45,384 nt of DNA, from the IMG/VR virus record IMGVR_UViG_2537561934_000012, positions 1 to 45,384 of that record, one strand, 5' to 3'. Below the pieces are notes generated by a model, which saw nothing but the letters and a program-made list of their open reading frames with translations, did not search any database and was not told the DNA's origin. Shown here piece by piece: positions 6,546 through 45,384 of the stretch (positions within the stretch are counted from its first letter, which is position 1; each line of letters begins with the position of its first letter). The translations under genes and the position numbers were made by a program. The stretch comes from a virus (Duplodnaviria; Heunggongvirae; Uroviricota; Caudoviricetes).

Positions 6546-7193
6546 TTATAGGTTGAACTGTACACCTTTTGCTACGGCAACAATTTTACACTCTGGCGTA
6601 AGCAAGGATGATTGATAGCGCGGATTGAGAGGGCTTAAATACACAAGTTTTCCATCAATAACTAATTTTTTTATAGTCATAGACGGTTCATTTGTAAGTG
6701 GATCTGGAACTATTACAGCGACAATACTGCCATTTTTATAACTTTCTCCTGGTCTTAGGATCACAGTGGCACCAACCGGGATACTCGGCGACCCTGAGGG
6801 GTTATGCATAGTGTCATCAGGCATTGAAACGGCAAAATCACCTTCCACTACATCAAAGAATGTGGTGATCCTATCGACATTTCCCATTGTTTTCTCTCCT
6901 TCTAAGATTAGGAAAGAAATCGCGTCACCCCACGAAAAGTAGGGGATCTTGGTGCCTGGATTGCTCTGCACAAAAGATAGTTCAGGAGACGATACTCCAT
7001 ACAGGAGATAGGACTCAGTAGTTCCTAATGCTTGAGCTAACTTACTTAGAGCTTTGCTGCCGGGTTCGTTTAGATCTTTCTCCCAGTACCCTATAGTAAC
7101 CCCAGTCACGCCTGAAAGCTTACCCAGTTCTACTTGGGTGAGTCCCTTATCTTTTCTGAGTTTCTTAAGCCTGATGCCAAGGCTTTCCATCAT
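6546..7193 (-). CDS. cI: CI-type phage repressor (HTH plus LexA/S24-like autocleavage domain)
   Basis: 215 aa. N-terminal HTH (LKKLRKDKGLTQVELGKLSGVTGVTIGYWEKD) and C-terminal S24-peptidase-like region. Divergent from the cro-like gene across an operator region. Confidence 0.85.
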   Translation of the reverse strand: MMESLGIRLKKLRKDKGLTQVELGKLSGVTGVTIGYWEKDLNEPGSKALSKLAQALGTTESYLLYGVSSPELSFVQSNPGTKIPYFSWGDAISFLILEGEKTMGNVDRITTFFDVVEGDFAVSMPDDTMHNPSGSPSIPVGATVILRPGESYKNGSIVAVIVPDPLTNEPSMTIKKLVIDGKLVYLSPLNPRYQSSLLTPECKIVAVAKGVQFNL

Positions 7194-7289: not shown

Positions 7290-7517
7290 ATGCGAGTTGA
7301 TGAACTTGTTCAGTTTTTTGGCTCTGTTCAGAGGGTCGCTGATTTTTATGGGATAACCCGCGAAGCTATTTACATGTGGCGTAAGCGCCCCGGTGAAATA
7401 GTTCCGAAAGGGAGAGCTGCGGAAGCTGCCGCATACTCCAAGGGAAAATTATCTTTGAACCCAGAGCTTTACAAAAAGAAGGATACCACTCAGAGCGAAA
7501 GGAAGAGTGATTCATGA
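7290..7517 (+). CDS. cro: Cro-like regulator (Rac YdaS-like HTH protein)
   Basis: 75 aa, divergent from cI, AGGAG Shine-Dalgarno upstream. Stop overlaps the next start (ATGA). Confidence 0.65.
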   Translation: MRVDELVQFFGSVQRVADFYGITREAIYMWRKRPGEIVPKGRAAEAAAYSKGKLSLNPELYKKKDTTQSERKSDS

Positions 7518-7939
7518 AAATCAAGCATGAACACATCCGCATGGCGATGAATGCCTGGGCGCATCCGGATGGTGAAAAAGTTCCGGCAGCTGAAATAACC
7601 CGGGCTTATTTTGAGCTGGGTATGACGTTCCCGGAACTGTATGACGACAGCCATCCGGAAGCCCTGGCTCGCAATACTCAGAAAATTTTCCGCTGGGTGG
7701 AGAAAGACACCCCTGATGCAGTTAAAAAAATTCAGGCGCTCTTACCAGCGATCGAAAAGGCAATGCCACCTCTGCTGGTGGCCCGAATGCGCAGCCACAG
7801 TTCAGCCTATTTTCGGGAGCTGGTGGAGACACGGGAGCGACTGGTGAGAGACGCTGATGATTTTGTCGCAGTGGCAATCGCCGGTTTCAATCAGATGAAC
7901 CGCGGTGGCCCGGCAGGAAATGCTGTGGCAGTGCATTGA
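7514..7939 (+). CDS. cII-position regulatory protein, Rac YdaT-like
   Basis: 141 aa, translationally coupled to cro, in the position of lambda cII. Resemblance to YdaT is from memory. Confidence 0.4.
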   Translation: MKIKHEHIRMAMNAWAHPDGEKVPAAEITRAYFELGMTFPELYDDSHPEALARNTQKIFRWVEKDTPDAVKKIQALLPAIEKAMPPLLVARMRSHSSAYFRELVETRERLVRDADDFVAVAIAGFNQMNRGGPAGNAVAVH

Positions 7940-8004: not shown

Positions 8005-9081
8005 GTGAGTATGGCTAACGCCTGGCTCAGATTATGGCATGACATGCCAAATGACCCTAAGTGGCGAACAATTGCCAGGGTGTCAGGGCAGCCAATTGCA
8101 ACAGTGATGGCAGTGTATATCCACCTCCTGGTGAGCGCGTCACGAAATGTCACGCGAGGTCACATTGATGTCACGACAGAAGATTTGGCAAGTGCGCTCG
8201 ACGTGACAGAAGAGGTAATTGATTCAATTTTGCAGACGATGCAGGGGCGGGTACTTGACGGTGATTTAATCACTGGATGGGAAAAACGCCAGGTGCTGAA
8301 AGAGGACAACGGCAATATTTCGCAAACCGCAAAATCTCCTGCAGAGCGCAAGAGGGCGCAGCGAGAGAGGGAAAGAAAGCGGGAACAAAATGGCAATTGT
8401 CACGGCGCGTCACGAAATGTCACGCACATGTCACGACGAGTCACGACAGATAAAGATACAGATAAAGATACAGATCAAGAAGATCAAAACACTATGGTCC
8501 ATGGCGTAAAAAACGCCACGAACCAGGCAGGGGATGTTCAGACCGTCAATCCTGGTCAGCCAGCAGGCACGACACCGGAAGCCGATTCAGCGTATGCGCT
8601 GAAAGCCGATTCGGGCGCTGTGCAGCAGGTGATGACCGCAAGGCCGGAGCAATCACACCAACTGCAGCAGCCTGAAGCCGATTCCGCCATTCAGCGGGAA
8701 GCCGATCGGGTAGTCCCGGAAAACACCGGGCAGCCTGTGAGACGAGTGGATTATCCGGATGTGTTCGAACAGGTCTGGCGGGAATACCCGCTGCGTGCTG
8801 GGGCAAACCCGAAGAAATCCGCTTTCAGTGCCTGGAAGGCCAGATTACGCGAGGGGGTGTCACCAGAGGCCATGCTGGATGGCGTGAGGCGTTACGCAAG
8901 ATACCTTGCGGCTACCGGGAAAACGGGAACGGAATTTGTTCAGCGAGCGACGACGTTTTTTGGACCGGACCGGAATTTTGAAAACCCCTGGCTGCTCCCG
9001 GTAAGCGGCACGAACAACCAGCGTTGTGTGAATCATATTTCTGAACCGGATACCGAAATTCCACCGGGCTTCAGGGGGTAA
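8005..9081 (+). CDS. Replication initiator (O-like / replisome-organiser-type) with internal origin iterons
   Basis: 358 aa, in the lambda O position. Contains two clusters of four GTCACG repeats at roughly 10-bp spacing inside the ORF. Track start is GTG at 8005; ATG at 8011. Confidence 0.6.
   Translation: MSMANAWLRLWHDMPNDPKWRTIARVSGQPIATVMAVYIHLLVSASRNVTRGHIDVTTEDLASALDVTEEVIDSILQTMQGRVLDGDLITGWEKRQVLKEDNGNISQTAKSPAERKRAQRERERKREQNGNCHGASRNVTHMSRRVTTDKDTDKDTDQEDQNTMVHGVKNATNQAGDVQTVNPGQPAGTTPEADSAYALKADSGAVQQVMTARPEQSHQLQQPEADSAIQREADRVVPENTGQPVRRVDYPDVFEQVWREYPLRAGANPKKSAFSAWKARLREGVSPEAMLDGVRRYARYLAATGKTGTEFVQRATTFFGPDRNFENPWLLPVSGTNNQRCVNHISEPDTEIPPGFRG
8135..8186. repeat. Iteron cluster 1 (4 x GTCACR at about 10-bp phasing)
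   Basis: GTCACG at 8139, 8149, 8170 and GTCACA at 8159. The 21-bp stretch GCGCGTCACGAAATGTCACGC recurs exactly at about 8405. Confidence 0.55.
8405..8490. repeat. Iteron cluster 2 plus adjacent AT-rich GATAAAGATACA tandem repeat (putative origin)
   Basis: GTCACG at 8409, 8419, 8430, 8440, followed by GATAAAGATACA x2 and GATCAAGAAGATCAA. Confidence 0.55.
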
Positions 9082-9121: not shown

Positions 9122-9544
9122 GTGGCAAAAGTTTTTACACAAGAAGAGCGAGAAAAAATTAAAGGGCAGGTTGTTGAACTCGTACGCCAGAGTGGGCGCG
9201 AGACGTTACGACAACTGGAAGCTAAGACAGGTGCGACAAGATATCTGATGAGCATTCTTGCCAGAGAGTTGGTTGCCAGTGGTGATGTATACAACTCTGG
9301 CTATGGGTTATTTCCCTCTGAACAGGCTCGTAAGGATTGGCAAAACGCCCGCAAAAAACTATCCAGGGCAAAGGTGAAAAAAACGGTTGTGGTTGATCCT
9401 GACCTTATCTGGTCGTTACCAGACGGCGAAATACGCCGCTACGACAGGCGCCTAAACATAATCTGTCGCGAGTGCCGGAAGAGTGAAGCTATGCAGCGCG
9501 TACTGGCGTTTTATCAGGGGAATTTTGAGGAGGAGGTGCGGTGA
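9122..9544 (+). CDS. Hypothetical replication-module protein (140 aa)
   Basis: ORF following the initiator. Its stop lies 4 bp before the IS left end. No helicase-loader motif recognised. Confidence 0.4.
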   Translation: MAKVFTQEEREKIKGQVVELVRQSGRETLRQLEAKTGATRYLMSILARELVASGDVYNSGYGLFPSEQARKDWQNARKKLSRAKVKKTVVVDPDLIWSLPDGEIRRYDRRLNIICRECRKSEAMQRVLAFYQGNFEEEVR

Positions 9545-9619: not shown

Positions 9620-9883
9620 ATGAAGAAGCGTTTTTCCGACGAACAGATCATCAGTATTCTCCGCGAAGCCGAAGCTGGGGTACCCGCCCGTGAACTCTGC
9701 CGCAAGCATGCCATTTCCGATGCCACGTTTTACACCTGGCGTAAGAAGTATGGCGGTATGGAGGTGCCTGAAGTTAAGCGCCTGAAGTCGCTTGAGGAAG
9801 AGAACACCAGACTCAAGAAGCTGCTTGCCGAAGCCATGCTGGATAAAGAGGCGCTTCAGGTGGCTCTTGGGCGAAAGTACTGA
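9620..9883 (+). CDS. IS3-family transposase OrfA (HTH and leucine-zipper-like region)
   Basis: 87 aa [20 protein letters not shown]..., typical of IS3-family OrfA proteins. Confidence 0.85.
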
Positions 9884-9906
9884 CGACAGACCAGAAGCGG
9901 GAAGCC

Positions 9907-10740
9907 GTGATGTTGATGTGTGATGCGACCGGTCTGTCGCAACGTCGTGCCTGCAGGCTTACAGGTTTATCCCTGTCGACCTGCCGCTATGAGGCTCACC
10001 GTCCGGCTGCTGATGCGCATTTATCAGGGCGCATCACTGAGCTGGCACTGGAGCGCAGGCGTTTTGGCTACCGTCGTATTTGGCAGTTGCTGCGCCGTGA
10101 AGGGCTTCATGTTAATCATAAGCGCGTGTACCGGCTTTATCACCTCAGTGGCCTGGGCGTAAAACGCAGAAGACGTCGTAAAGGGCTGGCAACAGAACGT
10201 CTGCCGCTGCTCCGTCCGGCGGCGCCCAATCTGACCTGGTCGATGGATTTCGTCATGGACGCACTTTCCACCGGTCGCAGGATCAAGTGTCTTACCTGCG
10301 TCGATGATTTCACAAAGGAATGCCTGACGGTCACTGTTGCCTTTGGGATTTCAGGCGTTCAGGTCACGCGTATTCTGGACAGCATTGCACTGTTTCGAGG
10401 CTATCCGGCGACGATAAGAACTGACCAGGGGCCGGAGTTCACTTGCCGTGCACTGGATCAATGGGCCTTTGAGCATGGTGTTGAGTTGCGCTTAATCCAG
10501 CCGGGCAAGCCAACGCAGAACGGATTTATTGAGAGCTTTAACGGACGATTTCGCGATGAATGTTTGAATGAGCACTGGTTCAGCGATATCGTTCATGCCA
10601 GGAAAATTATTAATGACTGGCGGCAGGATTATAACGAATGCCGCCCGCACTCCACGCTGAATTATCAGACACCGTCTGAATTTGCAGCGGGCTGGAGAAA
10701 GGGTCATTCTGAGAATGAAGATTCCGACGTTACTAACTGA
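9907..10740 (+). CDS. IS3-family transposase OrfB (DDE integrase core); expected to be made as an OrfAB -1 frameshift fusion
   Basis: DDE/rve-like core (...TDQGPEFTC...[32 protein letters not shown]...). Reading frame is -1 relative to OrfA. Confidence 0.85.
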
Positions 10741-13265: not shown

Positions 13266-13822
13266 GTTAATACCTTATACAGAATCAATTAACAATTAAT
13301 GGTTCTTCGGACATTGAAATTTATATCGCAAAAATTGGCAAACTCTCCTCGACTACTCACTTGTGGGTATCCTGGCGTAAAAGGAATGACTTGGCAATAC
13401 CCGGTGTGATCATAAGTCATTGAAAATGATCATTTTTATCAGTCTTTCTTCCATGATGAATGCTAATGCCATTTGATTTGTTGAGGTAAAAAGTGTTAAA
13501 AATCAAAACGATGTAATTGAAATGAACGTTCGGTAGCATTCACGCTTTAAATGTTTCTTTTGTGCTGATTGGATGAATTTTGGTCACTTATGATGAGAGA
13601 TGTTGCAGGAAAAGAAGTTGGCATTGATCTATTGGATAGTTAGAATTGCTGCGGGTGCTTGAGGCTATCTGCCTCAGGCATGAACACCAAAAGGCAGATA
13701 GAGAAAAGCCCCAGTTAACATTACGCGTCCTGCAAGACGCTTAACATTAATCTGAGGCCCAATCTATGTCTCACAAATGTAGGTTAGCCTCTTACGTGCC
13801 GAAAGGCAAGGAGAAGCAGGCT

Positions 13823-13978
13823 ATGAAGCAGCAAAAGGCGATGTTAATCGCCCTTATCGTCATCTGTTTAACCGTCATAGTGACGGCACTGGTAACGAGG
13901 AAAGACCTCTGCGAGGTACGAATCCGAACCGGCCAGACGGAGGTCGCTGTCTTCACAGCTTACGAACCTGAGGAGTAA
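13823..13978 (+). CDS. hokD: Hok/Gef-family type I toxin (51 aa), HokD/RelF-like
   Basis: Product MKQQKAMLIALIVICLTVIVTALVTRKDLCEVRIRTGQTEVAVFTAYEPEE matches the remembered HokD sequence. Single transmembrane helix. An in-frame upstream extension starts at 13766. Confidence 0.8.
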   Translation: MKQQKAMLIALIVICLTVIVTALVTRKDLCEVRIRTGQTEVAVFTAYEPEE

Positions 13979-16239: not shown

Positions 16240-16356
16240 TTGACCAGACACATTGTCCGGGGCTATATTTCCGACGCAACCGCAAAATCGGTTGTCGGGA
16301 TTAGCACCCCGGATGTTTACGGAGCGATATGAGGCGCGCCCGCGTCTTTTTTCATA
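16240..16356 (+). promoter_or_regulatory. Putative late promoter (PR-prime-like) with downstream Q-responsive terminator-like hairpin
   Basis: TTGACC (16240-16245), 18-nt spacer, TATATT (16264-16269) just after Q. GC-rich element followed by T6 at about 16331-16352. Confidence 0.35.
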
Positions 16357-16516
16357 TCGTTTGCACAGTCATATTCGCGATTTATGGCGGGCTGTGTGGG
16401 GGAGCCGAAAGGCTCGCCGGTTTCCGTACCCGGTAGTGCTAACCCCGCACAGTTCGCCACCACGATGATTAGCACCTGACGGTGGCGATAATGTCCAAAT
16501 GTACGGAGTTATCGTT

Positions 16517-17401: not shown

Positions 17402-17477
<76 letters not shown>

Positions 17478-17480
17478 TAT

Positions 17481-17555
<75 letters not shown>

Positions 17556-45252: not shown

Positions 45253-45384
45253 AACGATAACTCCGTACATTTGGAAATTATCGCCACCGACGACGCCAAT
45301 CGAACTGGTGGCGAACTGTGCAGGGTTGGCGTAACCGGGTACGGAAACCGGCGAGCCTTTCGGCTCCCCCACACAGCCCGCCAT

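Follow-up and report, generated by a model that had tools for sequence, protein, structure and literature searches.

Why would the gene for a phage replication initiator carry two separate clusters of one and the same hexamer, the first of them within the coding sequence of a predicted DNA-binding domain? The question is raised by IMG/VR virus record IMGVR_UViG_2537561934_000012, a lambdoid E. coli prophage (Caudoviricetes) that was analysed over its whole length of 45,384 nucleotides (nt), below called the window. Coordinates are positions in the window, and gene nt are counted from the start of the replication initiator (rep) gene. This gene starts with an ATG at 8011, occupies 8011..9081 on the + strand and encodes a protein of 356 amino acids (aa). 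The best explanation of the clusters, to which we give a probability of roughly 0.78, is that segment 8135-8525 is a bipartite iteron origin of replication, located inside the gene of its own initiator and bound by the product of this gene. The second cluster (array II) and the AT-rich tract following it are proposed to be the core origin, and the first cluster (array I) an auxiliary element.

The hexamer GTCACG occurs 31 times in the window, counting both strands, and 9 of these 31 copies lie within 8139-8445. The Poisson probability of finding at least 9 copies in 307 base pairs (bp) is 9e-14, or 1.4e-11 when corrected for the number of such windows, and this clustering, together with the phasing of the copies at one helical turn, is far beyond chance. 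Array I (8139..8175, + strand) consists of GTCACG at 8139, 8149 and 8170 with a degenerate, in-phase GTCACA at 8159, so that start-to-start spacing is 10, 10 and 11 bp. An exact inverted iteron (8202..8207, − strand; CGTGAC on the + strand, read as D-V-T) has its centre 32 bp from that of the final direct copy in this array. Array II (8399..8445, + strand) harbours five exact copies, at 8399, 8409, 8419, 8430 and 8440, spaced 10, 10, 11 and 10 bp. In a preliminary description of this DNA two clusters of four GTCACG copies at roughly 10-bp phasing were reported, both inside the initiator open reading frame. The two clusters, their phasing (10-11 bp in both) and their position within the reading frame 8011-9081 were found as described, but cluster I has three exact copies plus GTCACA and the inverted copy, and cluster II has five. 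The spacing places all copies of arrays I and II on one face of the helix. The arrays start 260 bp apart; the separation of 270 bp given previously applies to the two copies of a 21-bp direct repeat, GCGCGTCACGAAATGTCACGC, which is indeed exact (8135..8155 and 8405..8425, both + strand). Each copy comprises two iterons plus spacer; the copies share their reading frame, and ASRNVT is encoded by both. Array II is immediately followed by an A-rich, AT-rich tract of 50 bp (8446..8495, + strand) with 28% GC and 70% top-strand purine; the rep gene overall has 54% GC. At least three direct repeats at helical phasing with an adjoining AT-rich tract, the arrangement expected of an iteron-type origin, are thus present.

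Repeats within a gene may also be a by-product of the protein, in this case of a repeated or conserved peptide motif (SRNVT...VT) without a function of the DNA. ASRNVT is encoded by both clusters in the same frame, as this explanation would have it, and the iteron-encoded residues are the most conserved ones of the protein alignment. Array I encodes aa 43-55 (A-SR-N-VT-R-GH-ID-VT), which in the structural model run from the end of helix 1 through a loop to strand 1 of a winged helix. Codon usage was analysed in 20 divergent loci with GTCACG iterons from beta- and gamma-proteobacteria (among the genera are Aquitalea, Bordetella, Pseudomonas, Acidovorax, Serratia, Gilvimarinus, Chromobacterium and Pseudothauera), the N-terminal domains (N-domains) of which are 55-75% identical to that of the window. 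The iteron codons V47 GTC, T48 ACG, G50 GGT, H51 CAC, V54 GTC and T55 ACG were found in 20 of 20 loci, with a third-position entropy of 0, whereas the other invariant residues with four-fold degenerate codons (P13, P16, T20, P28, V32, G79, V81 and G89) use all codons, at a third-position entropy of 1.4-2.0 bits. Among the same loci variation is also seen in the spacer codons, R45 and R49. The inverted iteron is constrained as well, V65 being encoded by GTG in 18 of the 20. Since synonymous sites are invariant in the iterons and free at other invariant residues, the comparison indicates that selection acts on the iteron DNA rather than on the protein, which rules out a protein motif as the explanation. 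Furthermore, the hexamer is read in three frames as unrelated residues: GTC ACG gives V-T, nGT CAC Gnn gives x-H followed by G, A, D or E, and nnG TCA CGn gives x-S-R. All three are used in array II, translated as CH-G, SR, VT, SR and VT. No protein motif can account for one hexamer read in this way, and the linker in which array II is encoded is unconserved except for the iteron-encoded residues. The by-product explanation was rejected on the codon analysis, and we consider it extremely improbable.

The arrangement recurs in related genes. A homologue search with the N-terminal 160 aa as query yielded more than 800 homologues, and a genome scan provided 53 loci from Gamma-, Beta- and Alphaproteobacteria, Acidobacteria and others. 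At least two phased copies of one hexamer were present in each of the two zones in 41 of 52 related genes, compared to 1 of 784 control segments drawn from the same loci, and the median first-to-first distance between the arrays was 259 bp. The duplicated cluster, earlier regarded as less usual, is therefore the rule in this family. In 25 genes, including that of the window, GTCACG is found at gene nt 129, 139, 149 and 160 and the second array at nt 379-499, and 13 of the 24 other loci of this class also have the inverted copy at gene nt 192. GTCACG is almost absent from the 5-6 kb flanks of these 25 genes. More distant N-domains have GTAACG or CGAACG(C) in both of these positions; the hexamer varies from one lineage to another, and the two arrays of one gene always match. 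An O157 prophage (locus L005) has the same C-terminal domain (C-domain) and carries two arrays of AAGGGGCTT with the copies spaced at 11 bp; the arrays lie 267 bp apart and a (GAACAG)n tract comes after them. No similarity between its N-domain and that of the window was detected by hhalign. Iterons and initiators thus covary, with three hexamer classes within the N-domain family and a fourth iteron accompanying an unrelated N-domain. That the layout is found again with other hexamers and with a dissimilar N-domain speaks more strongly than anything else against an explanation by history alone. From these comparisons the two-cluster layout appears to be a conserved and characteristic feature of the family, a large and unstudied group of phage replication proteins.

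A comparison of iteron numbers in related prophages, as suggested in the preliminary description, showed that array I contains 3-6 or more copies, gained through in-frame insertions. All indels in the N-domain alignment are located within the loop encoded by array I and represent extra iterons; the loop has gained 7 aa in L007 and L004, 14 aa in L043 and 22 aa in L031. Two loci of Serratia and Pantoea (L051 and L056) have the same N-domain fused to another C-terminal part with a YVYY...GISxNPW motif and a GIY-YIG-like look. These genes are without array I and show direct and inverted ACTACG/CGTAGT repeats at the junction, at gene nt 320-470.

The AT-rich tract, too, has counterparts in the family. 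In the window it contains the tandem repeat ACAGATAAAGAT x2 that had been noticed after the second cluster and is present at 8446-8469, plus a third degenerate copy, as well as GATC at 8473 and 8482, and it encodes TDKDTDKDTDQEDQ. The number of the 12-bp units is 1 in L002, 2 in the window and 3 in L003. In the main iteron classes array II is followed, after its last iteron, by a purine-rich tract of the GATAAA/GATACA type that encodes DK or DT repeats, and in most loci, including loci of 57-69% GC, the 30-nt GC minimum past array II is 0.10-0.30. The tract 8446-8495 is proposed to be a DNA unwinding element. In loci L008-L052 a (C/T)AGATAAAGATAAAG-type tract, often ending in GATC, was seen right after the last iteron in the GTCACG, GTAACG and CGAACG classes, and L005 has the GAACAG tract in its place. 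Because it is found after three iteron classes, this type of tract is independent of iteron specificity; it could be recognised either by a host factor or by some conserved portion of the initiator. Directly after the AT-rich tract of the window lies a hairpin-capable palindrome, TGGTCCATGGCGTAAAAAACGCCACGAACCA (8495..8525), with 13 pairs, a dG of -8.7 kcal/mol and a z of -3.1.

The protein encoded by the rep gene consists of a winged-helix N-domain (aa 1-95), a basic helix (aa 110-130), a disordered linker (aa ~131-245) and a C-domain (aa 246-356). An AlphaFold2 model built from 76 homologues predicts the winged helix with confidence, and after it the basic helix, ~115 disordered residues and a helical C-domain. 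The fold of the N-domain is predicted to be a DnaD-NTD-like winged helix. Array I maps to this folded domain; array II and the AT-rich tract map to the low-confidence linker (aa 130-162). Pfam gave no family for the whole protein at E<=0.01. When the threshold was relaxed to E<=10 only PF09681 and HTH_Crp_2 were listed for the N-domain and PF04492 (Phage_rep_O) was absent, so that homology to lambda O was rejected and the designation O-like, used in the preliminary description, does not apply. The match to Phage_rep_org_N (PF09681) is full-length (aa 5-123 to profile 1-119 of 121) but sub-threshold, at 16.6 bits versus a cut-off of 23.3 (E=0.008). Some relatives are named 'phage replisome organizer' in RefSeq, and the protein itself represents phrog_3729, 'replication initiation protein', as its type member. 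Residues 121-356 match phrog_1701, 'DnaD-like helicase loader' (E=2e-62), and a weak resemblance to the C-terminus of DnaT was seen in the final 24 residues (NF002770, E=0.0015); PF09524 (Phg_2220_C-type) was not detected in the protein. A PDB sequence search gave no match to solved structures, and Foldseek against PDB returned only weak, generic winged-helix matches (E>0.4). With its DnaD-NTD-like winged helix and DnaD/DnaT-like C-domain the rep protein fits, by fold and family, an origin-binding replisome organizer, and it appears to be a functional analogue of lambda O. The linker also contains an imperfect 36-nt direct repeat at the DNA level (8575-8610 and 8671-8706, 75% identity) by which PEADS... 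is encoded twice, and L005 lacks 8 aa at this repeat.

Outside the array I loop and the basic helix following the wing, N-domains differ very little between iteron classes, and aa 43-56 form the only hypervariable, indel-prone segment of an otherwise highly conserved domain. This near-identity invites the idea that the iteron-encoded loop has a part in reading the iterons. The array I peptide (aa 43-56) would then help to recognize the iterons, and a change of iteron would rewrite the DNA-reading surface of the protein in a self-referential code. Gene conversion between the arrays would complete the switch in specificity, and the existence of several iteron classes would be explained. As the sole specificity reader the loop is weakened as a candidate by L038, which has CGAACG in array II together with a different loop and no array I, and also by the tolerated insertions of 7-22 aa. 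The type of basic helix tracks the iteron class, 'AKSAAERKR' occurring with GT(C/A)ACG and 'SAERAKAWRE' with AACGC-type iterons, a correlation confounded by shared ancestry. We regard the self-referential reading as improbable.

Which protein binds the repeats? They could be sites for another protein, either a neighbour of the YdaT/CII-like or DUF977/Ren-like type or a host factor. YdaT-like and DUF977 genes flank rep in E. coli relatives. However, rep is the only gene common to all 20 GTCACG-class loci, which come from many genera; the next commonest gene families were found in 12 and 10 loci, and no other co-inherited gene emerged as a candidate binder. The rep product is for this reason the only cis-encoded candidate. 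Moreover, the hexamer tracks the lineage of the N-domain and not the host, and a host factor would leave four iteron types in related genes unexplained. Binding by another protein is therefore very unlikely in our judgement. Co-inheritance is also apparent from the module boundaries. Partial matches in E. coli break within 8468-8486, one set ending at 8468 and another starting at 8486. These breaks lie inside the AT-rich tract, which argues that the N-domain and both arrays travel together in a single mosaic module; the unwinding tract may also serve as a recombination joint. The module is joined to differing C-domains, which are followed by nothing, a DnaC-like ATPase gene or a lambda-P-like gene. 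One locus, L004 (2561-4055 of the 195-kb plasmid p23AR0151A), represents a complete lambdoid immunity and replication module on a large E. coli plasmid, which may be a phage-plasmid or carry an integrated prophage. Its rep is a hybrid of the same N-domain, with two extra array I iterons, and a DnaT-like (PF17948-type) C-domain, and this hybrid is the only rep gene found with a lambda-P-like gene downstream.

Selection at the DNA level, covariation of the arrays, the low-GC tract past array II and rep as the sole shared gene all point to an origin embedded in the initiator gene, as the preliminary description had proposed. The iterons of ori-lambda, bound by lambda O, are located mid-gene in O and adjoin an AT-rich tract, in which unwinding takes place (PMC7466680). 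Similarly, the direct repeats of oriL, to which SPP1 gp38 binds, belong to gene 38 itself and border on an AT-rich unwinding element (PMC6316719). By analogy with these two systems we infer binding by the gene's own product, melting and helicase recruitment for the rep protein. Upon derepression rep would be transcribed along with cro and the CII-like gene. The winged-helix N-domain would subsequently bind the GTCACG cores of both arrays on one face of the DNA. Oligomerisation at array II would strain and melt the A-rich tract 8446-8495, after which the C-domain would recruit host DnaB/DnaC. Array I probably joins the nucleoprotein complex of array II, with looping or wrapping of the ~220 bp between them.

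Alternatively, array II and the AT-rich tract may be the whole origin and array I a control element outside the initiation complex. Array I could titrate the initiator, handcuff with array II or with a sister copy, as P1 incA does, or block RNA polymerase. In the roadblock variant, RNA polymerase could be stopped 130 nt into the rep gene, resulting in negative feedback. Such a role would agree with the location of array I within the transcribed rep gene and with its plastic copy number. It would also agree with relatives in which array I is absent and array II enlarged (L038 and L057), as well as with a spacing between the arrays that is not phase-locked. Variation in the spacing, and the fact that array I is occasionally lost, slightly favour a role that is modulatory and dispensable. 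On the other hand, selection on array I is as strict as on array II and the hexamer is always the same, which fits either role. In addition, the iteron total remains about constant on loss of array I, suggesting that the arrays are additive. In L038, the metagenome-assembled genome (MAG) of an Edaphobacter, seven CGAACG copies are present in array II (gene nt 345-411) and none in array I, a total similar to that of two-array genes. Strict selection at the DNA level and a nearly constant iteron total lean towards additive binding. We consider the control-element explanation possible, though on the whole unlikely.

Several observations weigh against the bipartite origin. L038 and L057, which kept array II and are without array I, indicate that at least some lineages can do without array I. 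In most loci the arrays are separated by 219-282 bp, and this distance is not helically phased, which argues against a rigid loop. No clear dual array was found in 9 of the 52 genes, and since related loci share ancestry, the locus counts overstate the number of independent observations. The auxiliary role of array I is one that we infer only. Of the proposed parts of the origin, the palindrome is the weakest, with modest cross-locus support: short GC-rich palindromes 45-60 nt past array II are modestly enriched across loci (p = 3e-6). Elements of the host initiator are not enriched. DnaA boxes numbered 36 versus 36 expected and oriC-like 13-mers 19 versus 13 expected, neither being above chance, and the AT-rich tract has only one oriC-like 13-mer, with two mismatches; these elements were rejected as an origin signal. 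Finally, full-text searches of a literature in which older subscription work is thinly covered gave no account of these iterons or of the origin, binding, melting or replication of this family. The Eru papers on non-lambdoid Stx phages discuss neither origins nor iterons.

Further signals in the region were few. No promoters or terminators above chance were detected there, and no RNA family matches (Rfam) were found in the repeat region. An antisense promoter-like site within array II (8396-8423, − strand; GTGACA, 16 nt, GACAAT; 1 found versus 2.3 expected) consists of the reverse complement of the iterons and simply arises from the resemblance of GTGACA to TTGACA.

The iterons of lambda are ~19 bp long and dyad-symmetric, each being bound by an O dimer, and a palindrome is located to the right of the AT-rich tract. 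The window shares several features with lambda and the O genes of Stx phages. The origin is located within the gene of its own initiator, phased sites are followed by an AT-rich tract, and the number of iterons varies between relatives (4 versus 6) with matching extra amino acids. As in lambda, the N-terminal part and the origin form one specificity module while the C-terminal part faces the helicase loader. The preliminary description held that the locus mirrors the linker origin of lambda. This is true for cluster II and the AT-rich tract, which lie mid-gene in the interdomain linker, but not for cluster I, which is located in the folded N-domain, nor for the iterons themselves, which are not dyad-symmetric. 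Unlike those of lambda, the cores in the window are 6-bp, non-palindromic direct repeats at 10-11 bp spacing with variable spacers, and ~260 bp upstream there is a second array, in the sequence that encodes the folded DNA-binding domain. Furthermore, the window protein has no Phage_rep_O homology and a predicted DnaD-NTD-like fold, and an adjacent P-type loader gene is not present in the window phage.

SPP1 G38P is an origin-binding protein with direct repeats in its own gene by an AT-rich element, as is proposed for the window protein, and its aa 119-240 match phrog_1701 (E=2.4e-11), as does the C-terminal part of the window protein. A direct comparison by hhalign detected no similarity between the two proteins (probability 0.1%). 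A scan of SPP1 gene 38 for a dual cluster found repeats in one mid-gene region only. SPP1 differs in that its second binding region, oriR, is ~13 kb away and in that it encodes its own loader and helicase (gp39 and gp40). Two separate clusters of one iteron served by one initiator are also known from P4 (ori/crr) and P1 (incC/incA). The second cluster of P4 is needed in cis, and that of P1 is a copy-control locus acting by handcuffing. In contrast to the window, where both arrays are located within 310 bp inside the coding sequence, these clusters lie outside the initiator coding sequence, flanking repA in P1 and kilobases apart in P4, and the initiators are unrelated. The DnaD N-terminal domain and the RepA_N plasmid initiators likewise count among the closest known systems.

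In the order of genes along the window, an integrase gene and an exonuclease VIII-like gene come first. A cI-like repressor gene (6546-7193, − strand), a Cro-like gene (7290-7517) and a YdaT/CII-like gene (7514-7939) precede rep, and a DUF977/Ren-like gene (9122-9544) is the next gene after it. The window phage is without a helicase loader gene of its own, and rep is followed by the DUF977/Ren-like gene as in the isolated phage Tritos, which has a 99% identical rep gene in the same loader-less module. An IS2/IS3-family insertion sequence with two open reading frames (9620-10740) follows immediately on the DUF977 gene, and within it an IS1222-type ribosomal frameshift element (RF00383) was found at 9850-9967. 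This insertion sequence occupies the place of further early genes of relatives, and the prophage may thus be disrupted there; as a whole it may be defective, though the rep gene and origin are intact. Elsewhere in the window (13653-13828, 16276-16464, 17402-17552 and 45304-45384) Rfam matches comprised a sok antitoxin RNA, isrK, two C4 antisense RNAs and two tRNA genes.

Origins that lie within an initiator gene and have an AT-rich tract behind their iterons are already known as a design. Different here are the protein family, the short, direct 6-bp cores and the conserved second array in the coding sequence of a folded DNA-binding domain. The reading of one hexamer in three frames at zero synonymous variation, the growth of a protein loop with iteron number and the presence of several iteron classes on otherwise very similar N-domains are differences as well. 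The rep gene is present at a coverage of at least 80% in 1,646 of 5,426 complete E. coli genomes, mostly labelled 'hypothetical protein' in RefSeq. For this very common prophage replication module of E. coli the analysis defines a likely origin and initiator, with an N-domain family that is spread over Proteobacteria and beyond. A DNA-binding array within the gene for a DNA-binding domain represents a clean natural case of overlapping code. With at least three iteron classes on near-identical N-domains, the family offers a tractable system for the switching of specificity between initiator and origin and for the role of the second array. Moreover, replication modules could be typed by their iteron class, from which the replication incompatibility of co-resident prophages could also be predicted.

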